Shown: positions 26,230 to 57,752 of the stretch, piece by piece | Layout of the letters: each line of letters starts with the position of its first letter | Position numbering within the stretch: position 1 is the stretch's first letter | Source of the DNA: a virus | Virus record (IMG/VR): IMGVR_UViG_3300021181_000006 | Coordinates: 120,467 to 184,466 of that record | DNA length: 64,000 nucleotides | Reading direction: 5' to 3' (one strand) | Translations under genes and position numbers: made by a program | The notes under the pieces: generated by a model | What the model was told of the DNA's origin: nothing | The model's database searches: none | What the model saw: the letters and a program-made list of their open reading frames with translations, nothing else

Positions 26230-27171
26230 TTAATTCCCCGTAATATCTGGTCGTTGCTGAGGTGGTGTGCTATCGTTAGTCAGTATATCTTGGACTTGGT
26301 CGTTGCCCACTGTCAATCCGCCTGGAACGGTTATTTGAACATGTGCGCCTGATCCAGATTCATTAGCAGAGCCGTTTAATGGTGATAAGAGAAGGATAAC
26401 ATCACCAGTTATTGTTGCTATGCGATAGATCCCGTCGTTTCCGTTTACTGATCCTACTATACTAAACTGACTTGCTTGTTTCAAGTTAGGGTTCGTAGAA
26501 GCACCAGTTACCGTAATAGTGCCATTAGCAACATTTATCGAAGCAATGGCATACATAATAAATGTATCCGGCAATGTAGCATGTGTTGGAGATAGAGTTT
26601 CAGAAATACTCAGTTTATTGAGCTGGAGATACTCTTGGCTAAACTTCCATTCTTCCTTCCATGCTAACTTTAAGAAGACTGGCACCACGGTGAGTTCTAT
26701 CTTAGAATCGGCTGAAACAATCGTCTCCGCACCAATACCTGCGATATCGAGTTTATGGATGCCATAAATGGTACGAATAGACTGTTTGAAGAATGTAAAT
26801 AACTGGAATACGAGACTTGCCAAGAATTCAGCTTCGAGACCTTCTCTAGAAAAGCAGTTAATCGTCATATCAACTTGAATAAGATCTTGATAAGTCTTAT
26901 TCTCAGCGAAACGACTATTAGTCTTAAAGTTATCATTCGAAGTATTCATCCACTGGATCTGTCCACGAGAGATAACTAACGAAGGACGGGTCTCTACTGT
27001 TTGCAGATTCTCTACATTCGTATCTATGATCTGTATCTTGGACACCTTTTCATCTGGTGACCATATGAAATCATTCTTATCGGAATACAGTTTCTGACGA
27101 GAAAAAACATCTTTAAGGAAGTGTAATAACACATCCTTAGCTTTAGATGGATAATTTGTCTCAGAGATCAT
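26230..27171 (-). CDS. tail terminator/completion protein with C-terminal extra domain
   Basis: position upstream of sheath; RPSLVISRG ... INCFSREGLEAEFLASLV. Confidence 0.6.
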   Translation of the reverse strand: MISETNYPSKAKDVLLHFLKDVFSRQKLYSDKNDFIWSPDEKVSKIQIIDTNVENLQTVETRPSLVISRGQIQWMNTSNDNFKTNSRFAENKTYQDLIQVDMTINCFSREGLEAEFLASLVFQLFTFFKQSIRTIYGIHKLDIAGIGAETIVSADSKIELTVVPVFLKLAWKEEWKFSQEYLQLNKLSISETLSPTHATLPDTFIMYAIASINVANGTITVTGASTNPNLKQASQFSIVGSVNGNDGIYRIATITGDVILLLSPLNGSANESGSGAHVQITVPGGLTVGNDQVQDILTNDSTPPQQRPDITGN

Positions 27172-27419
27172 GCATCTCTTGGGACGTAATGATCACGACG
27201 AGTGAGTACTGGCTCGAACTCTGGTACATGATCATTGGTTACATCACGATTAATATGCTTATAGTAAGCTAAAGCACCCATAGCTAAGAGTCCACCTAAG
27301 ATAGCACGGTTTACTGGATCTTTCGATTTCAATACTTTTTCACTGGATAAACTACCAACTAAAGCACCTAAAGTGCCAGTAGCAATGTATTCCATCTCAG
27401 CTGTCTTAGTAATCTGCAT
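27168..27419 (-). CDS. small KxA-motif glycine-zipper protein
   Basis: ITKTAE then GTLGALVGSL and ILGGLLAMGALAYY. Confidence 0.6.
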   Translation of the reverse strand: MQITKTAEMEYIATGTLGALVGSLSSEKVLKSKDPVNRAILGGLLAMGALAYYKHINRDVTNDHVPEFEPVLTRRDHYVPRDA

Positions 27420-27432
27420 GGTCTATAGTACC

Positions 27433-27837
27433 TTACTGGCGACTAAATCTCAACATGGGATACGATTCGTTCATAGCTCGTAAGGCAACATCGATATAAT
27501 GCACACCTTCATAGCCTTTATAGTGCCACTTACCTTCGTTGATAGATTTTATGGTGCATCGACGGAAGACACCGTTAATTGGGATAGTTTTTCCTAAAAG
27601 GTACCACATAATATGTGGTTTACGACCTGTATCGATGAATTGAGCGTAGTCTTTATCTGAATAAATAAAGATGATATTATCGATGACATACCCACGCATG
27701 CTTGCAGCTAATTGGCCAGTCGGATGCTTTAAAACACCTGAATACAAATATTCTTTGATCGAAGTAACCATGTCCTCTTTAATGCGAGACATGCCTTCAA
27801 AATCAACATCGCCATCAACAGCGATTTTGGTGATCAC
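27433..27837 (-). CDS. neck/head-tail joining protein (HK97 gp10-like)
   Basis: TGQLAASM....YAQFIDTGRKPH ... G.H.I..AL; position. Confidence 0.5.
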   Translation of the reverse strand: MITKIAVDGDVDFEGMSRIKEDMVTSIKEYLYSGVLKHPTGQLAASMRGYVIDNIIFIYSDKDYAQFIDTGRKPHIMWYLLGKTIPINGVFRRCTIKSINEGKWHYKGYEGVHYIDVALRAMNESYPMLRFSRQ

Positions 27838-28595
27838 TTGTGTCTACCTACCATATACTCAATGTCATTGGGATTAATCTGAGTAGACTGAATAATCTGT
27901 GAAATAGTCGCACCCATACGAGTGGTCTGAGTCACTTTAATAATACGATAACGCTTTCCAGTCTGTGGATAGAGAAAGAAATCTCCATCCTTCAGCTGTG
28001 GATAGTTAGATGTCTCTACAATGAAGTTATCTGGATTACGTGCAGGACCTAAAGTAGCTACGATATCATTCGGCACATTGGTATTCAAGAATCCTGAAAT
28101 AGGATTCCAATACCCACCAGCAAAGTTTGTTCCATAACAGACTTCGCAGTTTGCTTTGCTTTTGCGCTGTTTCAGCGCATCCCAGCAATTAGGGCAATAC
28201 TGACCAAAGGTCTTTTTACTGTAGAAAATGGCAGGAATACCCGTATAGCGCTGAAGATAGACATTCTTTTTACGTATTAACTCTAATGCCACAGCATCTG
28301 GTTGCCAAAGATTGTAGTAGACTCCGTAGTCCTTAAAGTCCTTGGTTACGATATTTGTGATACGAATCGTATAGAAGTACTTACGGCTATTCGAGAAATT
28401 ATTAACTGTCGTATCAATATACTCGAATGGCGTCACATTCTCAGCTATAAGAGCAAAGGGACCTTCCTCTGCACCTGAACGCAGGATACTGAAAGCATAG
28501 TCACTCAGTAACTCAGCAGTGGGCTCAATGGTCCAAAAGAGGCGTAGAGCCTCAATTTCGATCATCATGACACGAACTTCATTCATCACTAACAT
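27834..28595 (-). CDS. neck/head-closure protein with CxxC...CxxC insertion
   Basis: CPNCWD...CEVCYGTNFAGGY; C-terminal beta-barrel RYRIIKV; position. Confidence 0.55.
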   Translation of the reverse strand: MLVMNEVRVMMIEIEALRLFWTIEPTAELLSDYAFSILRSGAEEGPFALIAENVTPFEYIDTTVNNFSNSRKYFYTIRITNIVTKDFKDYGVYYNLWQPDAVALELIRKKNVYLQRYTGIPAIFYSKKTFGQYCPNCWDALKQRKSKANCEVCYGTNFAGGYWNPISGFLNTNVPNDIVATLGPARNPDNFIVETSNYPQLKDGDFFLYPQTGKRYRIIKVTQTTRMGATISQIIQSTQINPNDIEYMVGRHK

Positions 28596-31954: not shown

Positions 31955-33112
31955 TTAGGTCCCAAGGGTAACGGCTGCGGCAGCGTTCAGATTGCCGATT
32001 CCGATTGCAATATCTTCCCATGCACGCCATGAGATGATATTGAAGTCCTTCTTGATCACAAACTTCGTCTGATTCAGGATGTAGAACTGTCCCAGGAAGC
32101 GAGGAGCGGTGAAGGCGTACACAACCTTCAGGCTTGCTGCTGTGACAGTGAACGTCTCTGCGAGAGATGAGTTTGAGATGGCTTCATTTACCACGATGGA
32201 GTTGGCACCAACCGACGCAACCGTCACAGTCAGTCCGTTATTCTCATGTCCACCTGAGATCACAATCGAGTCACCGCGACCAATTGGCACCAGGTTTGCA
32301 CCTGAGAAGCTAAAGGTCTTGGTGCTGGCTACTGCGCCAGTGGTTGTGAGCGTGGTGACTGTTCCGCCTGGAACGTATGCAGCATTCTTGAAGAACATCG
32401 AGGTCTTAATCGAGGTGATAACCTTGCGACCCAGGAAGGTAGCGTAGGTGTATCCGTCGATAGTGACCTTCTCGATCAGATCGTCACCGAGGACGGTATG
32501 ATCGAATTCCAGGATATCATTCCAGGTTGTGGTTGACATCAGGAATGTCTCAGCCTTGAGGCGCTGATTCTCAATCAGATTGATAAGGACCTTCAGGGCG
32601 CCCTTGCTCAGATCTGGAGTGCTTCCGATGTAGTTAACCCACATATCGTTGCTCAGAATACCTGCATCGACGTTGGCCAGGAAGCCTGCGTCTTCGATAC
32701 CCTGAATATCCTTGACCGAGTTCTCTTCAATCACCTTGGTGATAGGATAGTCGTAGGCCAGGAGTTCGGTCTCATCCTTCGAGAAGTCCTCGGAGGCGAT
32801 ACGATAGAAAGGCACTGCGTATCTCTTGCCCACAACGTAACGACCATCGGGCTCGCCTTGGAAGTTCATTGCCATAGCCTTCGAATCAGGCTCGATGTCA
32901 ACGATCTTGACGAAACCGTCATTGGTCACGCTGCGTGTAACGTCAGAACGAGTGACATTCACTGGAGGAAGGATCTGACGAGCAAACGATGTCTCGCGCA
33001 GGATCTTTTGGATGTAGGCGCCGCCTACTTCGGCCAACTTCTCCAGACCTTCGTTGTTGCTAAGAGCATCAACGAATAATCCGTTTAAGATGGAGGCATT
33101 ATTATCACTCAT
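31955..33112 (-). CDS. major capsid protein (HK97 fold) with an inserted beta-domain
   Basis: SFARQILPP, P-loop-like PFYRIASEDFSKDETELLAYDY, C-terminal WEDIAIGIGN; C/G-ending codon bias; position. Confidence 0.88.
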   Translation of the reverse strand: MSDNNASILNGLFVDALSNNEGLEKLAEVGGAYIQKILRETSFARQILPPVNVTRSDVTRSVTNDGFVKIVDIEPDSKAMAMNFQGEPDGRYVVGKRYAVPFYRIASEDFSKDETELLAYDYPITKVIEENSVKDIQGIEDAGFLANVDAGILSNDMWVNYIGSTPDLSKGALKVLINLIENQRLKAETFLMSTTTWNDILEFDHTVLGDDLIEKVTIDGYTYATFLGRKVITSIKTSMFFKNAAYVPGGTVTTLTTTGAVASTKTFSFSGANLVPIGRGDSIVISGGHENNGLTVTVASVGANSIVVNEAISNSSLAETFTVTAASLKVVYAFTAPRFLGQFYILNQTKFVIKKDFNIISWRAWEDIAIGIGNLNAAAAVTLGT

Positions 33113-33154: not shown

Positions 33155-33568
33155 TTACTGTAAGGTACGGAACTGAAGGCGTCCAGCAACAAACTGCTCA
33201 CAGATAGCGACATTGATATCACTACCGGAAGCAACGCGAAGACGGAAGCCAACTTGGCCAGCTGCGGCTGAGTCTACTGCGAGGTAATTACCTACTACAG
33301 GAGTTCCAACGTAGCCTTCGGTTCCAACGGCGAAACGATTCTGTCCGTACTGAACGGTGATAGTCTCTGAACCAACGCTATCAGGACGAGCATTCTCATT
33401 ACCGAGAACGATGAGCTGAACGGGGCCTACGCCACCAGCAGAAGGGGCAATCGCGTTGCCATTAGCATCGCGTGAAACCCAGGTTCCAGATTGTGCGATT
33501 GAGGTGCCAGAATATCCAAGGACATTGCGGCGGATCTCGTCATAACGTGTTAATACTTCTAAAGCCAT
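33155..33568 (-). CDS. capsid decoration/cement protein
   Basis: 137-aa beta-rich ORF directly upstream of capsid gene. Confidence 0.55.
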   Translation of the reverse strand: MALEVLTRYDEIRRNVLGYSGTSIAQSGTWVSRDANGNAIAPSAGGVGPVQLIVLGNENARPDSVGSETITVQYGQNRFAVGTEGYVGTPVVGNYLAVDSAAAGQVGFRLRVASGSDINVAICEQFVAGRLQFRTLQ

Positions 33569-33572: not shown

Positions 33573-34448
33573 TTAAACTCCTCTACTGAGTAGATATTCT
33601 TCTATTAGGTTTGTGGATTCGACTGATGCAGTCTTGATTGTTCCAAAAGATGTGTAAGTAGCTGGTTCCAAGAGAGATTGACCACGTTCAGGGCTTGTTT
33701 TAAGTTCGGCTATCTTTTCGTCTAATTGGTCGATATCGATGATACCTTCCTTTAAGAGTTGGATGGCTAAGTCTTGTGCGTGTGCGGTCTTTTCCTGGTC
33801 TTCTAACTTGATTTGAAGTGCTATCTTATCTTGTTCTAGATTACGGATGAAGCTTGCGGTTTTCAAGAGGACATTTTTATCAACAGCCACTTTAGTCTGC
33901 TGCTTATCATGTTCCGTCATTTTCTTATCTCCCGCTAAAGCTTGCGCCCCTTGATTTAATGCTACTGTAGCAGCAATGGGCACCACAATCTTACCAGCCT
34001 TGCGGATGGGTTCAGTAGCTCTATGAGTATCGTGTCCTTTAGTTGCGAATTCAACCCTGTGTTTATCTTCTTCAGTTAAAGGATGGTTATTCTTGATTTT
34101 ATCAAGAACTTTATCATCTACAGCGTGTGCATGCTGTTCGTTTACTTTAAAAGCTTTCCCAACTCCTGGGACCTTACCAAGATGCTTACCAAGATATTCA
34201 TCGGCTTTATCGATATGCTTGCCAACGTGGTTGTATACAGCCCCGCGAACTGTATCAGAGACTACTTTTTTATTCTCTGCATACGTTCTCGCATCTTTCT
34301 TACCAGTAGCTTTATGAAAAATCTTCCTAGCTCCAGCAGCTAAACGACTACCTACACCAATAGCTGCATCAGCAACTAAAGATCCAGTGCCAGCATCTAC
34401 TGACTGCGCTCTACGGAGCTTATGAAGAAGTTCAATCTTAGACGACAT
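33573..34448 (-). CDS. KxA-motif internal head/scaffold-like protein
   Basis: basic N-half, hydrophobic helix, acidic coiled coil with KTAS/KIAL/KTAH/KIAE/KTAS. Confidence 0.65.
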   Translation of the reverse strand: MSSKIELLHKLRRAQSVDAGTGSLVADAAIGVGSRLAAGARKIFHKATGKKDARTYAENKKVVSDTVRGAVYNHVGKHIDKADEYLGKHLGKVPGVGKAFKVNEQHAHAVDDKVLDKIKNNHPLTEEDKHRVEFATKGHDTHRATEPIRKAGKIVVPIAATVALNQGAQALAGDKKMTEHDKQQTKVAVDKNVLLKTASFIRNLEQDKIALQIKLEDQEKTAHAQDLAIQLLKEGIIDIDQLDEKIAELKTSPERGQSLLEPATYTSFGTIKTASVESTNLIEEYLLSRGV

Positions 34449-34695
34449 GAGTAATAGCGTCCAGTAATGCCTTCATTTCGGCAATCTTGGCTTGTTTGCT
34501 ATCACCAGCGGATTTGAACTGCTCCGCTTCTTTATCAGCATTACCATTGAAGGCCAATGCTTCTAATAAAGATGCGATCTTACCTGATTCAGTCTCTTCT
34601 TTTACTGGAGTAGCTACAGTAGCTACCTTTTCCATATCAAGCTTGTGAGACTGCTTCAGAATGGACTCTACGATATCATCGGGAGTTAATTGCAT
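34438..34695 (-). CDS. small KxA-motif head protein
   Basis: MEKVAT, SGKIAS, QAKIAE. Confidence 0.6.
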   Translation of the reverse strand: MQLTPDDIVESILKQSHKLDMEKVATVATPVKEETESGKIASLLEALAFNGNADKEAEQFKSAGDSKQAKIAEMKALLDAITHVV

Positions 34696-35957: not shown

Positions 35958-37762
35958 TTGTTTTCTCCGTGTTTATTAGAGTTAATTTTTTTTAGGGCTT
36001 TATTGATGGCCCACGAGTCGAGAGCGCCACCAACGATTGAATGAGGAATGCTGCCTGATAGCGATGTCATAGGTCCAATAACAAAGTTATTTATCAAATC
36101 CATCTTACCAAGCTCGGCAGTTTTTTTCAAGCCCAAGACTGCGGCATTCGCTGCTAACGCCAAAGCACCAGGGTGATCCTTGATCACCTTCTCGATTCCA
36201 TTGAGATCACGATGTTTTTCTCGCTCAGTAGCGTAACCGTGTCCAATATAGGGAATAGCAGTTGCTAATAGCATCTTATTTACCATAGACGCATTCGCAT
36301 GTTTTTCAAATGCTGATTGTGCTACTGATGCCATAGCCGTACCGCCTGCAATCGCTGCAGGCAGTGCAATAGGATTTTTATCGATCAGCTTAAAGAATTG
36401 ATCGATAGTTCCATTGCGAATCGAGGTGCGATACTTAGCATACAAGATCGCTAAGAGAGCGCCTAAGGTAATGCCAGCAGGCAACATCTTATTAAATTTT
36501 TCATACGAAGAAGCTGCCAGAGATTTCTTGGCCTTAGCCTGTAACTCATCTGATGGTAAGGCAGCAAGCTTCTCCATACGATTAATGGCGTACAATCCAT
36601 AGTAAGCGCGCTTCTCAGCATATTTACGTAAATCACGTGAAATATCCATATCAATAGAAGCATCCCAGTTAATATCTGAGGCTTCCTTATGGAAATCAGG
36701 TGAACGACCCATACGTAATATAATGAGCTTACCCATTTCATGGGGCTTAGCGAGAATACCAGATGCTAAAAGATTACTGAGTGCGTTATGTAGAGGTAAA
36801 TTACCAAGATTATCAAGAGTACTATCTGACAGATCATCCTCAAAGCATTCCATCTCTGGACACCCAATAGAATCAGATACTTCTCCGATGGATTTACCAC
36901 CGGGTATGACTTTCTTGATCTCCGACTTCTTAGCAAGATCTGCTTCTTTCTCATTATCAATCATGCCATATTCTGCGGCTTTTTCAGCAGAAAACAAGGC
37001 TATAACTGAAGCGACTTTCTGGATGCTCCAGCCAAGAGGATCGGCAGGAATAGTTACCTTTGAGATATCGAAGAAACGAGGCTTTTTATTGATAGCATAG
37101 ACGCGTCTTCCATCAGGAAGAATCTTACCCATCATATTCTTGAGATAGAATCCGTACTCGTTTACAGTTTTATTGAACTTGCCAGTAATCGAGCAGTAGT
37201 CGCCAGGAACCTTACATCCCATGCTAAAAGCAATAGGAAGTCCTTTTTCAGCACGCATACAGGTATCTGGATCTCCCAGATACTGGATACCATTGATGGT
37301 CTCATTAGTGCGATAGACCTCAATAATGAGTTCTACACGATGCATAATGAAGTTATATTCAGCTATAATTACTTTACCGAAACGAGGATGACCTTGATCA
37401 GGCTTATTCTTATGATGATGATAGAATGAAGCGTATAAGAATGTCTTATAACGCTGCATAGCAGGTACACCACCAGGATTCTTAGCGGCCTCTTCCTGAT
37501 CCTGCATTCCTAAGAGATCTTGCTCTGAGAAATAATCTCCATTACGGTTGGGACCATAATAGTCACCAGCCGTCATAGCGATCATATGCAGATATACACA
37601 ATTCTTATTGAGCTTCGCTGTCTTAGCAAAGTTCAGAATCGATTCAGGTACATACTTTCCTAAACAAGCAGCGACCTTTTCATTGCTATCTTGGCTCGTT
37701 AACTGCCGAATAGCAACTTCACCTTCCGGGGTAAATGACTCAATATCTATGACTTTAAACAT
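35954..37762 (-). CDS. prohead (maturation) protease, HK97/assemblin (clan SH) fold, with KxA-rich C-terminal extension
   Basis: NRNGDYF, FYHHHKNK (His), FSMGC (Ser), FFDISKVTIPADP; upstream of scaffold and capsid genes. Confidence 0.8.
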   Translation of the reverse strand: MFKVIDIESFTPEGEVAIRQLTSQDSNEKVAACLGKYVPESILNFAKTAKLNKNCVYLHMIAMTAGDYYGPNRNGDYFSEQDLLGMQDQEEAAKNPGGVPAMQRYKTFLYASFYHHHKNKPDQGHPRFGKVIIAEYNFIMHRVELIIEVYRTNETINGIQYLGDPDTCMRAEKGLPIAFSMGCKVPGDYCSITGKFNKTVNEYGFYLKNMMGKILPDGRRVYAINKKPRFFDISKVTIPADPLGWSIQKVASVIALFSAEKAAEYGMIDNEKEADLAKKSEIKKVIPGGKSIGEVSDSIGCPEMECFEDDLSDSTLDNLGNLPLHNALSNLLASGILAKPHEMGKLIILRMGRSPDFHKEASDINWDASIDMDISRDLRKYAEKRAYYGLYAINRMEKLAALPSDELQAKAKKSLAASSYEKFNKMLPAGITLGALLAILYAKYRTSIRNGTIDQFFKLIDKNPIALPAAIAGGTAMASVAQSAFEKHANASMVNKMLLATAIPYIGHGYATEREKHRDLNGIEKVIKDHPGALALAANAAVLGLKKTAELGKMDLINNFVIGPMTSLSGSIPHSIVGGALDSWAINKALKKINSNKHGENK

Positions 37763-38102
37763 TATCGCCCTTTAAAGTCAGTTTCTTACCCTTACGCACC
37801 ATCTCATGACGGCGAGCCTCTTCACGATCCTGCACATCGCCATTGATCTCAACTCGATCTGGTTGATCTTGAAAATCCATACTACCGGCTTGTTTCATGG
37901 TTTCGTTGACTTGACCCTTAAGAAATCCTGGTTCTTTGACAGAACCTGGCTTCTTTTTCGGAACGAAAGCATGAGTTGGAACATCGATAGCATTAATCTT
38001 ATCATAATCTAAAGTCGTGTCATCTTTTTCGTCTCTGGTATAACCAGGAGCGCCATCTGCTAACTTCACGATAGCCTGCTCAATAAGTGACATTATCGAC
38101 AT
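37755..38102 (-). CDS. small KxA-motif head protein
   Basis: IVKLAD, MKQAG. Confidence 0.6.
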   Translation of the reverse strand: MSIMSLIEQAIVKLADGAPGYTRDEKDDTTLDYDKINAIDVPTHAFVPKKKPGSVKEPGFLKGQVNETMKQAGSMDFQDQPDRVEINGDVQDREEARRHEMVRKGKKLTLKGDNV

Positions 38103-38355: not shown

Positions 38356-38791
38356 TACTGCCTAAAATGAGATGGGCTTTCTTCTCATTTGGCATTAGCT
38401 TATCTGTGGCATGGAATGCTGCAAGACCAATAGCAGATCCAGCAATAGTGCCTAAAATAGTGGAGTTACGTTTATCCACGATATACTTTTTAACCATGTC
38501 AGCAAATTTAGCATTCGGTATCGATGCTGTAGCGAATGCCTCTCCATTCGATAATTTAGCCTTTTGATATGCCTCAGCATATTCCTTGATAACCTCTGGA
38601 TGTTCTTTTAATAACTTTGAGGTAACCTTTCCACTAGCAAACTGACTACCAGCAGCTATTCCACCTATAATGGAACCTTTTAAAAAACCCTTTGATCGTC
38701 CTTTTAATGAACGATCACTGGTAGTAGAAGCACCAACAGCGCCACCAATACCCATAAATGGAAAGAGTTTATTAACGAAAAACGTATGCAT
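38333..38791 (-). CDS. glycine-zipper head-region protein
   Basis: GIGGAVGA, GSIIGGIAAG, GTIAGSAIGLAA. Confidence 0.6.
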   Translation of the reverse strand: MHTFFVNKLFPFMGIGGAVGASTTSDRSLKGRSKGFLKGSIIGGIAAGSQFASGKVTSKLLKEHPEVIKEYAEAYQKAKLSNGEAFATASIPNAKFADMVKKYIVDKRNSTILGTIAGSAIGLAAFHATDKLMPNEKKAHLILGSIVHDRLL

Positions 38792-39393: not shown

Positions 39394-39719
39394 TTGCCTG
39401 CTCCGAAAGTGGGATTCATGCCTGTTGGATGTCGATTTTCGCCGTAATTTCTTGAAAGTTTACCCTGATAGTCAGAGTTTGCTTTGATAGCTCGTACACC
39501 TAAGTAACCAGCTGCTCCAACGCCTGCAGCTCTCGTCAGGCTTAGGCGACTACCACCCTTACCATTCGGAACATACAGAGCCTTATGAGCCACATCAGCA
39601 CCGACTTCCAGTGCTTTACCGGTACCAGTCACGGCTGCACGTCCAACCTTTTTAGCTCCAGTAGCTAATAGATCGAAAGCCGAAGCTGTTTTGATCATTG
39701 ATTCGAAAAATGGGTTCAT
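39390..39719 (-). CDS. KxA-leader cationic glycine-zipper protein
   Basis: MNPFFESMIKTAS leader, then basic amphipathic region and AAGVGAAGYLG. Confidence 0.65.
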   Translation of the reverse strand: MNPFFESMIKTASAFDLLATGAKKVGRAAVTGTGKALEVGADVAHKALYVPNGKGGSRLSLTRAAGVGAAGYLGVRAIKANSDYQGKLSRNYGENRHPTGMNPTFGAGK

Positions 39720-46815: not shown

Positions 46816-47489
46816 TATTTCTTTACTTTACTTAATAAAGTAAAGCCCTTTGTGCGACCACTAGACAATAAATTACCATGAGATAAAGAGTATTCTTCGC
46901 AAAATGGGTTGATAGCATCAGTCGGAATAATTTCGCCATCAGGCATCTTAATAGTATAAAGATTTTTTCGCATATTCTTCTTCATATCATCTGAATATAC
47001 TCTACCTTTATTCTTGCCCATCATAGAATTTCTAGCTTTTTCTCTAGTAGATTCCGATCTAACTGTTCCAAGTTTAGACAAACCAATATTCTTACAATGC
47101 TCTTCTGAACACTTTTTACCTAATTTAGTCACTCGACATTTTTCTATAGACTCTGGTCTATGTTTGCCATGTCCACCTCCAGTACGAAGATTATATCCAT
47201 TGTCTATGGAATTATATTGTTTAATTAAACAAATTTCTGCTCTATCAAGACCATCTTTAGACCAAGAAGATGCCAGTATGGTCACAATAAAATTGTTGAA
47301 CCCGTATTTCTTGATTGCATCACGTATTTTAGGCCGATCTTTACCTTTATAATATTCATATACATTCTGTATATAATATTGAGGATTTCTAGTCGTCTGG
47401 CCAATATAAAATTTACCACTAGGTGACTCTAGTGAGTAAATCACACCATATGGCTTCTTATCCATACCAGTCATACTACCAAACACCAA
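46815..47489 (-). CDS. GIY-YIG homing endonuclease with NUMOD3 repeats
   Basis: YGVIYSLESPSGKFYIGQT, GYNL..GG, KHRPESIEK / KCSEEHCKNIG / RSESTREK. Confidence 0.9.
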   Translation of the reverse strand: MVFGSMTGMDKKPYGVIYSLESPSGKFYIGQTTRNPQYYIQNVYEYYKGKDRPKIRDAIKKYGFNNFIVTILASSWSKDGLDRAEICLIKQYNSIDNGYNLRTGGGHGKHRPESIEKCRVTKLGKKCSEEHCKNIGLSKLGTVRSESTREKARNSMMGKNKGRVYSDDMKKNMRKNLYTIKMPDGEIIPTDAINPFCEEYSLSHGNLLSSGRTKGFTLLSKVKK

Positions 47490-47502
47490 TTACAACGCAA
47501 GT

Positions 47503-47922
47503 TTATCTTACGTGGTAATCCTTAATCGGCTTCAATCCATCGCCATTATGAATAATAGCCTTAGACGTAGTCTTAGCTGTCTGCCCTACAATGCTCTTAG
47601 CGGCAGGTAATCTCGCCGCAATACGTCCAGCTCTAATACCACCAGTTAATGCTGCACCACCAATGGCTCCCTTGAGCGCACCACCAATAGCTGATCCATT
47701 ATCACTAGATCCACCCGCTACAGCTCCACCAGCTGCACCAATAGCCGCACCAGGTAAAGCAGCTTTACCAATACGTTTTAACATACCACTCTTACCAGCT
47801 ACAGCGGATACCAGAGAGGCGGTCTTCATGAGATAGGCGAGTTTAGCTGTCATGGGCTTTATGGCAATAGCTTTGCCATTCCTAATATAAGGTGAGATCT
47901 TAGGAATCTGATTTGGATTCAT
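47503..47922 (-). CDS. KxA-leader cationic glycine-zipper protein
   Basis: AKLAY, MKTAS then GAAIGAAGGAVAGG, GGALKGAIGGAALTGG. Confidence 0.65.
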   Translation of the reverse strand: MNPNQIPKISPYIRNGKAIAIKPMTAKLAYLMKTASLVSAVAGKSGMLKRIGKAALPGAAIGAAGGAVAGGSSDNGSAIGGALKGAIGGAALTGGIRAGRIAARLPAAKSIVGQTAKTTSKAIIHNGDGLKPIKDYHVR

Positions 47923-48748
47923 GGTCTATCCCAAGGTCATCGATGGTAGATGCATTATCTTCGCTGAAGCTTAAGAGTAAAGCGTTGAAGTTCTTAGAAC
48001 GCTGAGGTGACTTCTGGATAGACTCTAACTTCACCATACGATCAATCGACTTAAATGCGAGATCAGCAAGACGACGTGTGGTCTCAAGCCCAGCAGAACT
48101 ACTATCTATTAAGCTTTCTTTATATTTAAAGAACGAGTCTGTGGCAATTTGCTTAATAGCTAACTGAGGATCGATATGGACCGCAACGCCGAGTTTCCAC
48201 CTGACATAATCCTGAGGCTGCACAATGATAGCATTCCGAAAGACTTGCTCGTCCTTCGGATAACAACGCATGGTGGCAAACCAGTCTTTTTGATCTCTGA
48301 CAAACGTCAGATCAGCAAAGAGATGCCGGTAATCGATAATAACTTCTAATGGAACAATAATATTGTAAGTAACATGTAGATCATCATAAATCATCTCAGG
48401 TGTGAGCCTGCCGATAAAAGAGCATTCAATATGACGCTGAATAAGTCTATTACGGATAATATTATCGAATTTATCTATATTGAGCTTATTATTAATAAAA
48501 TACTGATTAATTCCAAGTAATGCTGTGACTGACTTTAAGATTGATGGATGCAGACTGTGCATGCCAGCGGTCATAAAATGACTGCGCAGATTCTCAGGAA
48601 CTGCTATAAGGAAGTATTGATCGTAATATGCAGTTAATAACTCAGTAGATGCGCTAATGCCAGCAGATCGGAGAACTGTACTGATCTTCGTAAAGTCACG
48701 ATTATATGCCACATAGAGGCATCGCAAAAATCGAGTAAAAGGGAACAT
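47900..48748 (-). CDS. hypothetical protein (terminase small-subunit candidate by position only)
   Basis: 282-aa helical ORF upstream of terL; no motif recognised. Confidence 0.55.
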   Translation of the reverse strand: MFPFTRFLRCLYVAYNRDFTKISTVLRSAGISASTELLTAYYDQYFLIAVPENLRSHFMTAGMHSLHPSILKSVTALLGINQYFINNKLNIDKFDNIIRNRLIQRHIECSFIGRLTPEMIYDDLHVTYNIIVPLEVIIDYRHLFADLTFVRDQKDWFATMRCYPKDEQVFRNAIIVQPQDYVRWKLGVAVHIDPQLAIKQIATDSFFKYKESLIDSSSAGLETTRRLADLAFKSIDRMVKLESIQKSPQRSKNFNALLLSFSEDNASTIDDLGIDHESKSDS

Positions 48749-48760
48749 ATCTACATCATC

Positions 48761-49498
48761 TTAATGATGCTTAGACATGCCTTCAATAGCCATAGCGACT
48801 TTTTCGCTTGGCGTGTAATACGTAATCACTTTTCCGGTACGGCTAAGAACTAATATATTACCTTCAGGATCTCGTAACTTCTTTGATCCATCGAGTGATT
48901 GCTTGATGAGCTTAAGCTTTGATGTCTTCGCATCAATAGCCTTCTTAATATAAGCACGCTCAGTGAGTCCCATATCTACTGAGTGCTTCTTAGCATGGCT
49001 ATGAGCGTTACTAGGACTAGTCCATGCCAACTTCGTCATCTCTGCTTCAGTAGTGACGTATCTCACACCGTCTTCCTGATGTTCTAACGCGGGAATAGGG
49101 CCAACCTGCACAACAAGATGCTTTTCAGGCAATACAAACTTATTACCGGAAATAAGCCATGACTTACCATTAATGACTTTTGTCTTGTAGTGGTAGCTAC
49201 CACGAGATAATCGATCTTGTGCATTAGATCCTCTATCGCCAACAGCGAGATTATCTAACGAGACATTACTGCGTGTATTGTCTAAATGGCGAACCTCATG
49301 TTTATCTGGATTAAATCCATCTAAATACGTACTAGCAACTAAACGATGTACTTTGAGATTCTTCAGGCCAGTAGGTGTCGTTAAACGAACTCTTGGATAT
49401 CCATCCACGGTATCCCTACGAACAATCTCCTTATCGCCACGAAAGATTTTACCTTCGGGTGTAATGGAATAATTTTCGTATCCTGGGATAGGTCTCAT
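48761..49498 (-). CDS. NUMOD4-HNH endonuclease fused to a toxin-like RNase domain flanked by KxA sites
   Basis: PIPGYENYSITPEGKIF; VHRLVA..Y; VRHLDNTRSN.SLDNL; then TKLA | HAKKH..MGLT...Y...A...NILVLSRTGKVITYYTP | EKVA. Confidence 0.75.
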   Translation of the reverse strand: MRPIPGYENYSITPEGKIFRGDKEIVRRDTVDGYPRVRLTTPTGLKNLKVHRLVASTYLDGFNPDKHEVRHLDNTRSNVSLDNLAVGDRGSNAQDRLSRGSYHYKTKVINGKSWLISGNKFVLPEKHLVVQVGPIPALEHQEDGVRYVTTEAEMTKLAWTSPSNAHSHAKKHSVDMGLTERAYIKKAIDAKTSKLKLIKQSLDGSKKLRDPEGNILVLSRTGKVITYYTPSEKVAMAIEGMSKHH

Positions 49499-49689
49499 TG
49501 GAGTGATGCTATAGCCTGTGCGATTTTATCTAGCGATTCTGTCTGATCTTTATTACCCTTATTACGAAATGCTGAAACGAGGATAGCAAAGTTTGGATCT
49601 TCGTTATAGCGCTTCTTAGCCAGCGGTATAGCCATATCCTCAGCATTGGTAATTTGGATACCTTTATCAGGCGAGACTTCCATGCTCAT
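49495..49689 (-). CDS. small protein with C-terminal LDKIAQAI motif
   Basis: ATGA-coupled; KxA motif. Confidence 0.6.
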   Translation of the reverse strand: MSMEVSPDKGIQITNAEDMAIPLAKKRYNEDPNFAILVSAFRNKGNKDQTESLDKIAQAIASLQ

Positions 49690-50036
49690 AGATAACCATT
49701 TCCAACACTGATCTCAGCTGCAGGAGTCGCTGAAGCATCTCCAGATGAAGCATTACCACCAACTGAAGCTTCATCAGCACCTACAAGACCGGTAGGACGA
49801 CTATTTCTTGGAAATATATCTTCGTGTAACGAATGGTGAGATCCACTAAAACCTTCGATAGCTTTAGCAATCTTCTCGCAATGCGTCGCTTCGAGTTCTT
49901 TCCAACCCTTTACTTTATTCTTATCTGAAGCCTTAGAGTTCAGGATGAGCTGCTCTTTCGCTTCATGTACAGCATTACTGTCGCAGATTGCTTTTGCTAT
50001 CTTTTCTATAGATGACATCGGTTTCTGCTTTCTCAA
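49686..50036 (-). CDS. small protein with two EKIAKAI motifs
   Basis: SSIEKIAKAI, CEKIAKAI. Confidence 0.6.
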   Translation of the reverse strand: MRKQKPMSSIEKIAKAICDSNAVHEAKEQLILNSKASDKNKVKGWKELEATHCEKIAKAIEGFSGSHHSLHEDIFPRNSRPTGLVGADEASVGGNASSGDASATPAAEISVGNGYL

Positions 50037-50187
50037 TCGCTTTTTTATTAAACTTTTTATTCTTATAAGCCTGAAGCTGTTCTTTTATACTTTTTCCAGA
50101 CTTAGAAGATAACTGATGAGCTTCACCAGCAGCAAAGTTTCGCATCAACTTAGCAGCAGATGCAATCTTACTTAGGTGCTTTGACAT
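49975..50187 (-). CDS. small basic protein with LSKIAS leader
   Basis: MSKHLSKIASAA followed by a K-rich body. Confidence 0.55.
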   Translation of the reverse strand: MSKHLSKIASAAKLMRNFAAGEAHQLSSKSGKSIKEQLQAYKNKKFNKKAIEKAETDVIYRKDSKSNLRQ

Positions 50188-50671
50188 ACTTTAATGTCGG
50201 AGCTTCTTTAGGATTTACAACTGGTTTTCTGATAATCTCAGTGGCTGCAGTAGCCTTATTAATACTAGGATTAATACTAGGAGCAGGAGCTTTCATTTTC
50301 ATGATAGCACTCATCGTACTTGCGCATTTACTCATTACCTTGCGCGACTTAGGACAGTACGTAGCTGAACTGACCAGATTACTGGTAGCCTGTACGTTCT
50401 TATTCTCTTGAGTCGATCCATTCGATGAATAAGGGCTATAATCCTCAGACATCATAGATGCTTCAATCGCAGCCATCTTCAGCATGGCCTGCTTCACGCG
50501 ATACATATTACCGCTATGGGAATCCATATGGAATGTATTAGGACGCTTTCCAAGGGCACCTTGGAACTCTGGCTTCACGAAGTTTTTAGGACCAGATGAG
50601 AGGATCTTTGATCCACCCTTCAGGACGTTGCCAACAGTATTAATGGCGTCAGCGATCTTTTCGAAACTCAT
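50168..50671 (-). CDS. protein with MSFEKIADAI leader
   Basis: leader plus internal RVKQAMLKMAA. Confidence 0.65.
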   Translation of the reverse strand: MSFEKIADAINTVGNVLKGGSKILSSGPKNFVKPEFQGALGKRPNTFHMDSHSGNMYRVKQAMLKMAAIEASMMSEDYSPYSSNGSTQENKNVQATSNLVSSATYCPKSRKVMSKCASTMSAIMKMKAPAPSINPSINKATAATEIIRKPVVNPKEAPTLKYVKAPK

Positions 50672-51018
50672 TAGTCGTCCTTTTTCTTACGCTTGGCAAG
50701 ATGATAAGCTGCGACACCACCTAAGGCAGCACCAGCATAACGTGTAGCTTTCAGAGCACGTATTACATTCTTAGCACGAGGTAGATCTTGATTTGCCGCC
50801 GCCAAATTAAATGCTTTAATAGCATGATCTTTAGCTAAATGATGTGCAAGAGCATGGCCAGCAAGCATACCTGTTTCAACGGCGAAGCCAGTACCAGCTG
50901 AACGTAAAACAGCATGAGTACGACTTTCGCCTTTATCCAGTTTCCTTTGACTGCCAATAACAGCACCAACGATAGCGTTGGCCTGCTTTATAGCATCAGC
51001 AATCTTTTCTAAACTCAT
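50671..51018 (-). CDS. protein with MSLEKIADAIKQA leader and glycine zippers
   Basis: leader; AIVGAVIG, GTGFAVETG, YAGAALGGVAAY. Confidence 0.65.
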   Translation of the reverse strand: MSLEKIADAIKQANAIVGAVIGSQRKLDKGESRTHAVLRSAGTGFAVETGMLAGHALAHHLAKDHAIKAFNLAAANQDLPRAKNVIRALKATRYAGAALGGVAAYHLAKRKKKDD

Positions 51019-52670
51019 TGTAATCCCTTTAATGAGTCGATGACTCGTTGTAAGTATTTCATAGCCATTTTTGTAGCGTTTTCATCGCCTTTAAGACCAA
51101 GTCTGATCATGACCAAGATTTTTGCTAATCCATTAACGCAATCTTGCATATCAGGGAGCATTTGGATGAAGGCTTGGATATTTTCTTCATTCACAAACCC
51201 GAGACCAAGAATGGCATCTACGGAATCTGGATCTGAGAGCGCTGCAGCGAGTTTAATACGATCATTCCAACCGAGTTTCACTGGTGTAGGTACTGATGCC
51301 ACTTTCATGGCCTGACTGTCAGTCACACCAGAAATAATCACACGACCACGATTCTCAGCAGTCTTTACTAACTCTTCAGCATTAGAATAGAATGGCTTTA
51401 GTTTAGCAGTCAACTCTACCGCATTCATGCCATGGAACGAACCAACCTTCTCATTCTCAAACTGGTAATTATCACCAGAAAACTTCAGAAATGTCAGGTT
51501 AGGACTGATCTTCGCCATAGCCATCTTCTGGAGAACATCGTCCTCCTGAAGAGGATGAATACGCTTACCCAGTTTCACAATACCTAATGATTTAGGAATC
51601 AGATAACCGCCAGCGATCTTCTGGATAGAAGCGATCTTTTCTGAGAACTGTAAACGGATAGTCTCACCAAAATGAGTACGAGCTGCGAGCTTAATACCAT
51701 CTGGAGTCGTCATCTTACTGAGGATCTGGATAGGCTCTAAAGCGACACCACTGGTCTTCACGAAGCATATATCATCGCCCATGTCGAATGAACTCGTGGC
51801 TTCAATAGGAGCTGAATAGGACTTACCAGCCATCTTTTCCTGATAGCCATACACATCCTTGCCGATGAATAAGCTATGAGCCAGCTTTTCACCAGCAAGG
51901 GTTTCTACATCGTGAATAAACACACCGGTAACGGCACCTTGCTTACGATCTACGACGATAGCTCCACCAGTCTTGGTCAGAGGCTCAAAACCCATATCAA
52001 TTTTATCGAGAACCATACCTGCAACTTTTGACTGCTGATTCAATGCTTTTGGCGTTGGATCAACCGTCACCAACTTAGCAATTTTTTCTAATGACGTGAC
52101 AGTGCCATTAGCTTTAAAGCCAGCTTGGTATGACATATTTTCTTGTAATGTCTCATGAAACGCAGCCATATCGTCTTTATAAGCGCTAACGATACGCTCA
52201 GCATATTTTCCATAACCTGGAGTACTCTGAGGATCAAGACCCTCATGCGATGCTTGCATGTAATGGTCTACGCGACCTTCAGAACTCTTGCGCTTGAGTT
52301 TTCCCATAGCCTGCTTCTTCTGAAGCAGAGACATGAGATTCTCTTCTGTCAGTGGGAACACATGGTCTTTCCCCACCATGAGAGTATCCAAAGCAGCTAA
52401 CCTACGCTTTTTGATGATTAAAGGCACTGTTGCCTGGACATCAGGGATATTGAGGCGAACACCGCCCTGAGCGTAACCTAATTCTTTATCGAGATTCTTG
52501 AACACGATTTCAAACGGTACTTGAGCTAAAAATGGTATTTCTTCGTTAATGTGAGAGATGATCTCTTCATCCCACTTCGCGCAGTTGTCACTCAGCTTAA
52601 AATCAGCCGTCTTCTCACTGTCAAACGACGGTGGATCGATGAATAACGATTGATGAGCATGAGGCTTCAT
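51015..52670 (-). CDS. large KxA-rich virion protein
   Basis: at least 11 K-x-A motifs in 551 aa; AGGA SD. Confidence 0.75.
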   Translation of the reverse strand: MKPHAHQSLFIDPPSFDSEKTADFKLSDNCAKWDEEIISHINEEIPFLAQVPFEIVFKNLDKELGYAQGGVRLNIPDVQATVPLIIKKRRLAALDTLMVGKDHVFPLTEENLMSLLQKKQAMGKLKRKSSEGRVDHYMQASHEGLDPQSTPGYGKYAERIVSAYKDDMAAFHETLQENMSYQAGFKANGTVTSLEKIAKLVTVDPTPKALNQQSKVAGMVLDKIDMGFEPLTKTGGAIVVDRKQGAVTGVFIHDVETLAGEKLAHSLFIGKDVYGYQEKMAGKSYSAPIEATSSFDMGDDICFVKTSGVALEPIQILSKMTTPDGIKLAARTHFGETIRLQFSEKIASIQKIAGGYLIPKSLGIVKLGKRIHPLQEDDVLQKMAMAKISPNLTFLKFSGDNYQFENEKVGSFHGMNAVELTAKLKPFYSNAEELVKTAENRGRVIISGVTDSQAMKVASVPTPVKLGWNDRIKLAAALSDPDSVDAILGLGFVNEENIQAFIQMLPDMQDCVNGLAKILVMIRLGLKGDENATKMAMKYLQRVIDSLKGLQ

Positions 52671-52711: not shown

Positions 52712-53014
52712 TTAGGCAGAGAAAAATCCATTTGTTCCAGCGACGGTACAGAGTCCTAAAGGTGGAGCTGTTGCAACACCCAAGGTTGCCACTGGCTTTC
52801 CATTAATAGTGAAGTGCCCTGATGCAACAATGGTTGTCGGAGACGTATCAAATGGCTCACTTGTCTCCTGGGCTTCTCCAATATCACCAAGCACTAATAC
52901 GAGTATACCTAAGATAGTGAAGTGGCTCTGCCCACTAGCCACAGGAGCTACAATCTGTGCATATGCCGTAGGGGCAAACAATGCTAAGCCAGACTGAGCA
53001 ATGAATCCGCTCAT
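52712..53014 (-). CDS. PAAR-like baseplate spike tip
   Basis: follows spike gene; HFTINGKPVATLG repeat-like motif; ~100 aa. Confidence 0.65.
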   Translation of the reverse strand: MSGFIAQSGLALFAPTAYAQIVAPVASGQSHFTILGILVLVLGDIGEAQETSEPFDTSPTTIVASGHFTINGKPVATLGVATAPPLGLCTVAGTNGFFSA

Positions 53015-55788: not shown

Positions 55789-55801
55789 TTCTATGTATAC
55801 C

Positions 55802-55891: not shown

Positions 55892-56098
55892 GTGAAAACC
55901 ATTATGTCGCAAGACACACATATCAAGTTTCCTCAATCAAACAGTGATGATTTCGATAATGCTGTAGCAGATAGTCATGATACTATCACTATGCGTTTAT
56001 ATACTACCGTACAAATTATTCATGCTGTAACTGGACTCGTTATTGCCGCTAACGATCTATACTGCAATATTAATAATACAGGTAAGAAAACTGTTTAA
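55892..56098 (+). CDS. hypothetical protein
   Basis: 68-aa ORF (GTG start) between two terminators. Confidence 0.4.
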   Translation: MKTIMSQDTHIKFPQSNSDDFDNAVADSHDTITMRLYTTVQIIHAVTGLVIAANDLYCNINNTGKKTV

Positions 56099-56108
56099 TA
56101 ATTATTAT

Positions 56109-56140
56109 GAGACCGGATAATCATCCGGTCTCTTTTTTTA
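56109..56140. terminator. terminator between convergent genes
   Basis: GAGACCGGAT-AATC-ATCCGGTCTC-TTTTTTT. Confidence 0.75.
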
Positions 56141-57292
56141 ACTATCTGATTTTTTATCTATAATCTTTTTATAGACTCTACCCATCAAAGGTATAAATCC
56201 AGGTAATGCACGTGCTAACACGTATGGAACCTGCAGTCCCATTTTACCTTTCAATGAATTTTTATGAGCATTATAAGCACGTGATAAAGACTGCATATCC
56301 TCAATACTACGTGGTATATACGTAGCTGCTTGAGCCAACGCGGTAGTATCTGCTATTCTATTGCTGCCATCAGCTAGAAACGAATAACTACTATTGAGTG
56401 CGCCTAACATCTTCACTGGTGTACTATCCAAATATTTACTGAATACAGGAGCTGACTTGCCTTGACGCAATGCGCCGCGTGATACTTCACGAGCTATAGA
56501 AGTAGGAGAAGTATCTCCTGGATCGATAGATATGGCACCTAATCTCGATCCTACTATATGCTGCTCTGGAGTTACTTGGCCTGGTAAAACTTTTTTAATA
56601 AAATCTTCTGGACCAATATACGAAGTACCTGATCGTGATTTATCACTCAGAATCATAGGCATACCATCTAGTCCTGCTTTACGAGACGCAGCGGCATGAA
56701 TAGGAGGTATTTTACTTACATGAGTTGGAGTTGCTAAATAAGAGAAAACAGTCAGTGGTGCAATAATACCAGTAGCTATTTCTCCAATGGCTTCATCGGT
56801 AGCATCCTGATCTCTCTTTTTACGAATCATTTCTTTATTATATTCGTTTACTTCAGCATTCTTATCGAGATTATCTAATGCAGCTGCTTCATTAGCAGCA
56901 TAATTACCGATTAAACTTCCATTCACAAGACCAGTCCACTTTCTTGTGGCATCTATATACTCTGGAACTTTTGGCTTATGATTTTCTTGAATGACTGCAT
57001 CAAAGGCAGGTTGATCCTGATGACGTAGACGTTCATCTCTACGAATACGCATCTCATTAATAACGGTATTAATAGCTGCGCCCTTTAATGCATTACTCAT
57101 CATCATGCTTTTCAAAGCATCAACATTACGATTTCTCATAAGCGCATACGCAGCGAATGAACTTGTTAAGCCACCAGCAGCACCAATAAGTGCTGATAAG
57201 GCATAGCCTTTAGATACCTTCAGATTACCCTGAGGTGTATCTATGGAGTGATTCAGCAGCCCACGATTAATATCAGGCTGGGGATTCGGCAT
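56138..57292 (-). CDS. virion protein with glycine zippers and a degenerate zincin-like domain
   Basis: LIGAAGG; LDKNAE; ISIDPGDTSPTSIAREVSRG where HExxH is expected. Confidence 0.6.
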   Translation of the reverse strand: MPNPQPDINRGLLNHSIDTPQGNLKVSKGYALSALIGAAGGLTSSFAAYALMRNRNVDALKSMMMSNALKGAAINTVINEMRIRRDERLRHQDQPAFDAVIQENHKPKVPEYIDATRKWTGLVNGSLIGNYAANEAAALDNLDKNAEVNEYNKEMIRKKRDQDATDEAIGEIATGIIAPLTVFSYLATPTHVSKIPPIHAAASRKAGLDGMPMILSDKSRSGTSYIGPEDFIKKVLPGQVTPEQHIVGSRLGAISIDPGDTSPTSIAREVSRGALRQGKSAPVFSKYLDSTPVKMLGALNSSYSFLADGSNRIADTTALAQAATYIPRSIEDMQSLSRAYNAHKNSLKGKMGLQVPYVLARALPGFIPLMGRVYKKIIDKKSDS

Positions 57293-57752
57293 CTAAAGCT
57301 CGCTTGGTAGCTTTGACAGCATGATTCCGATAGTGCTCAACCGCTGCTTGCAGTTTCTCAGCATTATCGCCATGCGCCTGAGCTGTCTGCTCTGCAATCA
57401 TCAGCTTCTCTTTGAGCTTTTTAATGGTATTCTTCAGTTTATCGACATTCGAGATAAGACCAAAATTATCGTTCTCTAAGAGAGCTTTCTCATGATCTAC
57501 AGGAGTAGGCTTGGGAGCCTGTACACCTTTACCATGAAATTGAGTATTAAGCTCTGCGGTTTTATCTGCTGCGAAGTCCATGACTTTAGGATTATAGCCT
57601 TTGTCATAGACCGTGTCCATATCCCAAAGATTAATACGACGGTCACGGTTAGCCCGTGGCTTAAACTCAGTCTCTTTTGTCAGAGAAACAGACATGCCCT
57701 GCGGCACAACCTGCATGTAGTTGACTGCAGCTAATTTACTTACGGAGGGCAT
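57273..57752 (-). CDS. KxA-leader coiled-coil protein
   Basis: MPSVSKLAA; C-terminal coiled coil; overlaps the RNAP stop. Confidence 0.65.
   Translation of the reverse strand: MPSVSKLAAVNYMQVVPQGMSVSLTKETEFKPRANRDRRINLWDMDTVYDKGYNPKVMDFAADKTAELNTQFHGKGVQAPKPTPVDHEKALLENDNFGLISNVDKLKNTIKKLKEKLMIAEQTAQAHGDNAEKLQAAVEHYRNHAVKATKRALDAESPA

Follow-up and report, generated by a model that had tools for sequence, protein, structure and literature searches.

A short tripeptide, Lys-x-Ala (K-x-A), recurs in the late, minus-strand gene products of an uncultured phage, and the question it raises is whether it marks the sites at which the phage's own prohead protease processes the proteins of the head. 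The DNA analyzed, called the window below, is the final 64 kb (64,000 nucleotides, positions 120,467 to 184,466) of IMG/VR record IMGVR_UViG_3300021181_000006, which comprises 184,466 bp with a completeness of 94% by CheckV. The initial annotation of the window proposed that K-x-A is a head-protease code that turns more than 20 genes into polyprotein-like precursors of internal-head cargo. We estimate a probability of roughly three in four that K-x-A is what the phage's own prohead protease recognizes and cleaves. Enrichment, restriction to head genes, conservation in orthologs, sites at the borders of the protease and the capsid leader all support the proposed code in silico; the figure of more than 20 substrates did not hold up.

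We counted K-[TIVLQME]-A (the strict motif) and K-x-A with a free middle residue (any-x) in two head blocks, comprising all minus-strand open reading frames (ORFs) at 33.5-40.7 kb and 47.5-57.8 kb minus the HNH gene at 48761-49498 (23 ORFs, 4,891 amino acids (aa)). The strict motif occurs 67 times in these blocks vs 19.0 expected, and none of the 400 gapped dipeptides is more over-represented than K-x-A (p 2e-6). A-x-K, its mirror image, shows no such excess (59 vs 50 expected). Elsewhere, the strict motif is found 37 times in plus-strand genes vs 44 expected and 6 times in the window's capsid-to-tail block vs 5.3. The motif is over-represented in head proteins and not elsewhere. Against local shuffles within 10- or 20-residue windows, which preserve local Lys/Ala/Glu richness, K-x-A still stands out with z = 6 and the strict motif with z = 11; the excess is strongest for E-K-x-A, counted 31 times vs 4 (z = 14). 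None of the control motifs KA, AK, KxxA, AxxK and AxK is enriched under these shuffles. Positions that were not used for selection are biased too: Glu is over-represented just before Lys (35 vs 9.2, p 6e-12), as is Ser at the residue following Ala (28 vs 9.6). The fuller logo is (L/M/I)-E-K-x-A-(S/A/E/G), although the position two before Lys shows no significant bias in the window's own lineage. Head enrichment, as first noticed in the initial annotation, survives correction for composition and for local order (z about 11), and the site counts given there agree with ours: the eight sites of the 211-aa protein (ORF 35322) are all strict, the 551-aa protein (ORF 51015, at least 11 claimed) has 14 strict sites, the protease (about 9 claimed) has 7 strict and 11 any-x sites, and every other ORF that it named has at least one.

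The simplest alternative is that the pattern is a chance or compositional artifact of Lys/Ala/Glu-rich helical proteins. Genome-wide, the excess of the motif is merely about twofold, gapped-dipeptide and tripeptide scans of the whole genome do not single out K-x-A until the head genes are separated, and many of the ORFs originally listed have one or two sites, which within this genome alone is indistinguishable from chance. A twofold excess that an unbiased scan misses indicates that the signal belongs to a subset of genes, and against chance stand the local shuffles (z 6-14) and the flat mirror and shifted motifs. Conservation also argues against it. In ortholog pairs with two relatives (A and B, 30-72% identity), K-x-A was kept as K..A in 66 of 125 cases. 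Retention was lower for both controls: A-x-K was kept in 25 of 92 cases (Fisher p 1.7e-4) and K-x-other in 180 of 729 (p 9e-10), so that motif pairs are retained about twice as often as control pairs. Sites persist through swaps of the middle residue (K-T-A to K-L-A, K-I-A to K-L-A) in proteins only 35% identical. In the protease and 551-aa families, K and A are better conserved within the motif than outside it, and the middle residue is below average conservation. With the motif conserved in orthologs and across 47 protease, 42 551-aa-family and 120 capsid homologs, chance is excluded for the core set and is exceedingly improbable as a general explanation. It is the best reading for the single sites in the HNH gene (48761), the ORFs at 53011, 26230 and 30320, the terminase and the RNA polymerase. 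These sites are probably fortuitous because their counts are at or below expectation or because they are not kept in relatives: none of three is kept in relative A for the HNH protein, none of three in either relative for 53011, one of four for the terminase and three of eight for the RNA polymerase, which has three sites vs 5.05 expected and no N-terminal site. The K-x-A sites of the 460-aa protein look like chance.

The candidate for the processing enzyme is the 602-aa product of a gene that lies in the head module beside the scaffold-like and capsid genes. An AlphaFold2 (AF2) model built from 47 homologs has a predicted local distance difference test score (pLDDT) > 90 across residues 40-250. 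Its top VIA-align matches are the varicella-zoster virus (VZV) protease (1vzv; Z 9.5, root-mean-square deviation (rmsd) 2.6, 113 residues aligned) and T4 gp21 (5jbl; Z 9.3, rmsd 3.1, 134 aligned). The human cytomegalovirus (HCMV) protease is third (Z 6.7), with unrelated helical matches from 5.8, and Foldseek lists 5jbl and three herpesvirus proteases weakly. His117 and Ser180, the candidate catalytic residues, are invariant in the 47 homologs, in His-then-Ser order. A tblastn search with the 602-aa domain retrieved Arash gp222, Vibrio phages including D69 and, weakly, Bacillus phage G gp19 (2e-4), which was called a head maturation protease in a 2025 paper (PMC12484599). Because of the fold match, the invariant His117 and Ser180 and these tblastn links, we name the 602-aa protein a putative prohead serine protease of the assemblin/gp21 fold (MEROPS clan SH) that is in no curated sequence family. 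No PHROG matches it, a profile search against PDB sequences returned no protease, and among the 47 homologs there is one marginal Peptidase_S78 match (E 0.077); the family itself is large and unannotated, with 207 matches among the candidates scored. Residues 290-602 form a helical, family-conserved C-terminal extension (about 300-350 residues) with hydrophobic stretches and further K-x-A sites, reminiscent of herpesvirus protease-scaffold fusions. Size and position had made this protein a candidate for the portal, which the fold search ruled out. The 291-aa protein, for which phmmer against PDB found nothing, was considered as the protease and rejected, the 602-aa product being the protease.

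Two sites frame the predicted catalytic domain. K29-x-A31 lies in a disordered leader just ahead of it (residues 13-35, pLDDT < 50) and is retained in 46 of the 47 homologs. K249-V-A251-S forms the final strand of the domain, precedes about 40 disordered residues (251-288) and is retained in 39. Further sites are found at K272 in the disordered linker (kept in 24 of 47) and at 398 (kept in 31), and phage G gp19 has LEKVAS at 248 and LLKIAS at 274. The major capsid protein presents a similar arrangement at its N terminus, where LEKLAE, picked out in the initial annotation, occupies residues 23-28. K-x-A occurs at residues 23-33 in 110 of the 120 best capsid homologs, with the logo [ED]-G-[LI]-[ED]-K-[VL]-A-[QE], and the leader is common to Arash and D69. 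In the remainder of the capsid protein, K-x-A is below expectation (0.81 vs 1.40). We predict a capsid propeptide of about 27 residues that ends at K25-L-A27; more than 1,000 homologs of the capsid protein are present in public data. Most of these homologs have about 295-310 aa, whereas those of this subclade have 381-385 aa, a difference of about 80 residues, and the extra segment, at roughly residues 250-330, is rich in Thr, Ser, Gly and Val and looks like an inserted surface domain.

Between the protease and capsid genes, the order is 211-aa scaffold-like, 162-, 85-, 291- and 137-aa protein, and it is the same in L002 and L011. The 211-aa protein has eight strict sites vs 2.07 expected (shuffle p 2e-4, Benjamini-Hochberg (BH) q 0.09), and six of its nine K-x-A are kept in each of two relatives; it is probably cut into small peptides. 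Two of five sites of the 162-aa protein are kept in relative A at 44% identity, and those of the 85-aa protein survive K-I-A to K-L-A changes in a 35%-identical ortholog. In the 291-aa protein, with six strict sites where 1.63 are expected (shuffle p 0.003), four of seven K-x-A are kept at 35% identity. Farther along, the 278-aa protein keeps two of three sites in relative A and all three in relative B, and it is a weak homolog (BLAST) of Arash gp220 and a D69 311-aa protein, with nine and ten sites, respectively.

A second class of sites ends short N-terminal leaders, as the initial annotation had stated. Leaders of 5-13 residues are found on small proteins and recur in relatives. Of the three small proteins encoded at 49686-51018, two begin M-S-[FL]-E-K-I-A-D-A-I and one has S-S-I-E-K-I-A-K-A-I; the enrichment of the 167-aa ORF is nominally significant (p < 0.01). 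At least four further small minus-strand proteins, encoded in other parts of the genome, carry the same leader, as do small proteins of L002, L009 and L011. M-S-L-E-K-I-A recurs on at least eight small late proteins, also in relatives. Of the minus-strand ORFs, 14 have K-x-A within 16 residues of the N terminus, where 6.8 are expected. Longer blocks are shared as well, namely M-S-[FL]-E-K-I-A-D-A-I, M-N-N-I-E-K-I-A-[SK]-A and ...L-I-E-x-A-I-x-K-[LIV]-A, and the 'LIE.AIEK.A' leader of the 115-aa protein at 37755 is present in relatives. In T4, the capsid-targeting sequence is a 10-residue leader of which residues 8 and 10 (P3 and P1) direct processing, and the short leaders here are candidate targeting-plus-cleavage signals by analogy. 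Four small ORFs with an E-K-I-A leader lie outside the window (G000:C1 30485-30661, 31319-31546, 34998-35249 and 35250-35486), as does a 304-aa late protein (G000:C1:23724-24638, minus strand) that has eight strict sites vs 0.85 expected and is the genome's second most enriched ORF. Part of the system therefore lies beyond the window.

The 551-aa protein is the most enriched of the head proteins (14 vs 1.83 expected, BH q 2.5e-6). Its family has 1,277 representatives at E <= 0.001, and all 42 aligned members carry between 8 and 20 K-x-A, on average 13.6 where 3.8 are expected. Of the individual sites, K473 is invariant, and those near 20, 350, 382 and 456 are kept in 28-41 of the 42. In the AF2 model (pLDDT 82), a leader and an N-terminal alpha/beta domain are followed by 30 residues of disorder and a short helical segment; then come two beta-rich domains and, at the C terminus, a helical bundle. 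Fold searches returned one uncharacterized phage protein in BFVD and only generic helical-hairpin and weak beta-barrel matches with Foldseek against PDB and VIA-wide, and scanning viral contigs with this protein alone found nothing. Sites 20, 155, 215, 382 and 456 lie within or beside low-confidence linkers.

The pattern extends to cultured phages. No DNA-level relative was found among 50,697 deposited phage records searched with the head module, and by protein the cultured phages closest to this one are Salmonella phage Arash and Vibrio phages D69, D148 and D181 (capsid proteins 32-36% identical); the closer uncultured relatives compared are L002/L009 (a single 100-kb IMG/VR contig) and L011. 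The head modules of L002, Arash and D69 show the same enrichment, and phage G shows the pattern weakly. In Arash, gp220 has 9 sites vs 1.2 expected and gp223 has 5 vs 1.4; in D69, the 311-aa protein has 10 vs 1.6 and a 269-aa protein has 6 vs 1.3. The logo is sharper in Arash and D69, [LMI]-x-K-x-A-[SA]. All of Arash gp218-gp226 were found in virions by mass spectrometry (MS) (PMC10585845).

Several observations weigh against cleavage at these sites. The Arash virion MS paper, in which processing was not looked for, reports no cut; it gives coverage figures only (86.6% for the capsid protein), and its supplement is a gene table without peptides (PMC10585845). None of the Pfam protease models Peptidase_S77, S78, S21 and S80 matches the query, and the 47 homologs add only the marginal S78 match. 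The head blocks, although contiguous, were picked after the finding had been read. The capsid leader is conserved as a whole block, with K and A not uniquely constrained, and the D69 homolog of the 551-aa protein is not enriched (6 vs 4.2 expected). In the model of the 551-aa protein, sites 262, 279, 327, 345, 351, 436, 473 and 534 are inside confident secondary structure. Sites embedded in helices or strands would be poorly reachable by an endoprotease in the folded protein, and this is the main internal objection to pure cleavage. The earlier statement that sites sit at domain boundaries is thus accurate for the protease but holds only in part for the 551-aa model, in which several sites, including the conserved K382 and K473 and the less conserved K327, fall in helices or strands. 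Known substrates such as T4 gp22 are likewise helical.

These structural observations raise the possibility that K-x-A is a recognition or assembly motif that is retained uncut in mature proteins, either as a contact that a helix presents to the scaffold, the shell or the protease or as a targeting signal. Besides the conserved sites within predicted helices of the 551-aa protein, the leader M-S-L-E-K-I-A-D-A-I resembles an amphipathic helix and recurs as a block of 7-9 residues, which suggests binding besides or instead of cutting. We nevertheless consider an exclusively uncut motif quite unlikely, as sites at both protease borders, at the end of the capsid leader and throughout the scaffold-like protein reproduce the distribution of sites known to be processed in T4 and phiKZ, and the body of the mature capsid protein has fewer K-x-A than expected.

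If K-x-A is cut, the scissile bond is most likely the one after Ala, K(P3)-x-A(P1)↓S, where ↓ marks the cut. Four considerations favor this assignment: (i) T4 and phiKZ/SPN3US use the same P3-x-P1 spacing. (ii) A small invariant residue suits the P1 pocket. (iii) S/A/G/E is preferred after Ala, like P1' in SPN3US. (iv) Herpesvirus assemblins, the best structural match, cut Ala↓Ser. A doubtful alternative, though one of some weight, is that the same code is cut after Lys, (L/M/I)-E-K↓x-A, with Ala as a P2' determinant. A hydrophobic-x-K sequence at P3-P1 would also satisfy the P3-x-P1 rule, Arash and D69 show a strong preference for L/M/I two before K, and such cuts would escape tryptic MS. However, the position two before K is not significantly biased in the window's lineage, in which Ala is defining, the enrichment of Ser/Ala/Gly/Glu after Ala suits a P1' preference, and the fold class includes the Ala↓Ser-cutting assemblins. 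A cut after Ala also has a practical consequence: with Lys two residues before the cut, the new ends would be missed by ordinary tryptic proteomics, which may explain why such processing is unreported.

The motif Lys could instead be the acceptor of a phage ubiquitin-like E1-E2-JAB cassette, with x-A as part of the consensus, such that head-internal proteins are tagged or cross-linked and exposed virion proteins are kept Lys-poor. A ThiF/E1 gene is present in this genome outside the window (G000:C1:88152-88847), in Arash (176809-177291) and in D69 (173999-174484), and the fibre-like proteins and the 137-aa neighbor of the capsid protein are strikingly poor in Lys. Conjugation is a very unlikely explanation, given that phage G has protease-border sites and no ThiF, that it leaves Ala and the N-terminal-leader geometry unexplained, that an expelled scaffold would be an odd conjugation target, and that nothing ties the cassette to the head genes. 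As to the lysine content itself, the 137-aa protein (33155-33568, minus strand), next to the capsid gene, has zero lysines, and the large fibre-like proteins have 0.8-1.6% Lys vs 5-12% in most ORFs (Lys-poor loci at 9657-15148 (+), 22510-26229 (-) and 52712-53014 (-)). This poverty could reflect avoidance of a lysine-directed protease or conjugation system, or plain fibre composition.

With cleavage after Ala by the phage's protease as the preferred reading, we infer the following course of head maturation. Inside the prohead, the protease would release its own catalytic domain at K29-x-A31 and K249-x-A251. It would then strip the leader of about 27 residues from the capsid protein, and the scaffold-like proteins of 211, 162 and 85 aa, together with the tail of the 291-aa one, would be chopped into small peptides that leave the shell. 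Leaders of 5-13 residues (M-S-L-E-K-I-A↓D...) would be trimmed off the small proteins; they are probably also capsid-targeting signals, by which these proteins would be packaged. The 551-aa protein may be cut at several joints.

About ten ORFs of the window have statistical or ortholog support as substrates, well short of the more than 20 genes originally proposed. The supported set, as predicted from sequence, consists of the protease, the capsid protein, the 211-, 162-, 85-, 291-, 278- and 551-aa proteins, and the leader-bearing small proteins at 49686-51018 and 37755 (Table 1). The ORFs at 38791, 39390, 47503, 49495 and 57273 are possible substrates; for 57273, no ortholog was found at E < 1e-5 in the relatives compared. 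No ortholog of 27168 or 27433 was found in those relatives.

Table 1 Positions in the window of the protease, its predicted substrates and sites, and other late genes.
Feature	Coordinates	Strand	Remarks
Major capsid protein, 385 aa	31955-33112	-	PHROG major head protein
Capsid leader site K25-L-A27	33032-33040	-	
291-aa protein	33573-34448	-	6 strict sites, confined to residues 186-274 in the C-terminal third
85-aa protein	34438-34695	-	5 strict sites vs 0.65 expected, BH q 0.05
Acidic/Ala-rich protein, 162 aa	34804-35292	-	4 strict sites vs 1.79 expected
Scaffold-like Ala/Glu-rich protein, 211 aa	35322-35957	-	Strict sites at residues 23, 45, 66, 90, 96, 118, 133, 149
Putative prohead protease, 602 aa	35954-37762	-	Enrichment nominal p < 0.01
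Predicted protease catalytic domain	37013-37645	-	About residues 40-250
Protease site K249-V-A251	37010-37018	-	Consensus K-V-A-S
Protease Ser180	37223-37225	-	
Protease His117	37412-37414	-	
Protease site K29-V-A31	37670-37678	-	Family consensus L-E-K-x-A-S
115-aa protein	37755-38102	-	Longer leader MSIMSLIEQAIVKLA-DG; second site at residue 70
200-aa protein	38791-39393	-	Possible substrate; sites at 28 and 56, ahead of a hydrophobic region; 1/2 kept in relative B
278-aa head-module protein	39716-40552	-	Sites at residues 12, 135, 210
Large terminase	45277-46815		Pfam
GIY-YIG homing endonuclease	46815-47489	-	
HNH homing endonuclease	48761-49498	-	PHROG HNH, E 5e-24; K-x-A most likely chance, outside the system
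Three small proteins (116, 167, 115 aa)	49686-51018	-	Candidate capsid-targeting leaders ending in a site
551-aa protein	51015-52670	-	Site-richest protein; 15 any-x sites
159-aa protein	57273-57752	-	Possible substrate; leader MPSVSKLA-A; second site at residue 64
RNA polymerase, fused beta-beta', 2028 aa	57736-63822	-	Pfam

The surroundings of these genes are sparsely named. PHROGs and Pfam, applied to 30 late proteins, gave names only for the capsid protein, terminase, RNA polymerase, HNH and GIY-YIG proteins. A portal was not identified in the window, and Arash gp204 ('portal') matches none of the window's proteins by BLAST. The GIY-YIG and HNH genes are interspersed among the head genes; the HNH ORF is 245 aa here vs 464 aa for its homolog in a relative, which indicates that the 46815-49498 region is variable. 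The RNA polymerase contains the domains Rpb2_6, Rpb2_3 and Rpb1_1/2/5 and a lipoyl/M23-like barrel match at about residues 526-594. Its versions in relatives have 1848 and 2412 aa, the longer with a faint LAGLIDADG match and possibly an intein, and in Arash and D69 the same regions are split between proteins of about 1525-1545 and 610-630 aa. Both Arash polymerase proteins are among the most abundant in virions, and by analogy the polymerase of the present phage is very likely a virion protein as well.

The proposed code can be compared with several known systems. T4 gp21 cuts (L/I)-x-E↓ in gp22, gp23, gp24, gp67, gp68, IPI-III, Alt and gp21 itself, and is reported to be processed near both ends (PMC9026906). 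The present system resembles that of T4 in the fold of the protease (Z 9.3), in two determinants spaced P3-x-P1 and in a site-riddled scaffold or core protein, as well as in features that here are predicted from sequence: a capsid N-terminal propeptide, protease sites near both ends and short leaders that end in a site. In contrast to T4, the determinants are Lys and Ala rather than Leu/Ile and Glu, and the protease has a helical C-terminal extension and no Pfam protease match. In phiKZ and SPN3US, the proteases gp175 and gp245 act on S/A/G-x-E↓ (A-x-E↓) sites in many head and inner-body or ejection proteins, with Ser preferred at P1' (PMC10052503). These phages share with ours a large size, a virion-type multisubunit RNA polymerase and many head proteins with multiple redundant propeptide sites. 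They differ in P1, which is Glu there and probably Ala here, and in P3, a small residue there and Lys here; moreover, the present phage belongs to another lineage (Arash-like, with no DNA similarity), and its polymerase is a single 2028-aa beta-beta' fusion without an excess of sites. Glu is enriched only just before Lys, and the conserved residues are Lys and Ala, so that the code is a variant outside the group that cuts after Glu.

The maturation and release sites of herpesvirus assemblins are (V/L/I)-x-A↓S. Like the assemblins (VZV 1vzv, the best structural match at Z 9.5, and HCMV 8j3s), the system described here would use Ala followed by Ser, has a site at the C-terminal border of the catalytic domain, where the release site lies, and fuses the protease to a long scaffold-like C-terminal part. 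Unlike them, it has Lys at P3 as a second determinant, belongs to a bacterial virus and shows no detectable sequence similarity; the shared Ala↓Ser may be ancestral or convergent. Literature searches for a Lys/Ala prohead-protease motif returned only T4, phiKZ and SPN3US papers, none describing such a code, and a 2026 jumbo-phage review cites the phiKZ motif only. New here are the link to cultured phages, the recurrent leader, the separation of real from chance sites and the caveat raised by the 551-aa model.

If the K-x-A code is correct, the contents of the mature head, including propeptides, scaffold fragments and proteins that are likely carried into the host, would be readable from sequence across a very large and almost unstudied clade. 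The gp21/assemblin superfamily would gain a third specificity (Lys at P3, Ala at P1) beside the Glu-P1 phage and Ala↓Ser herpesvirus enzymes, which bears on how these groups are related. The M-S-L-E-K-I-A leader would become a candidate tag with which to load foreign proteins into capsids, a use already made of the T4 targeting sequence. The code can be tested directly in cultured phages, namely Arash from Salmonella and D69, D148 and D181 from Vibrio.

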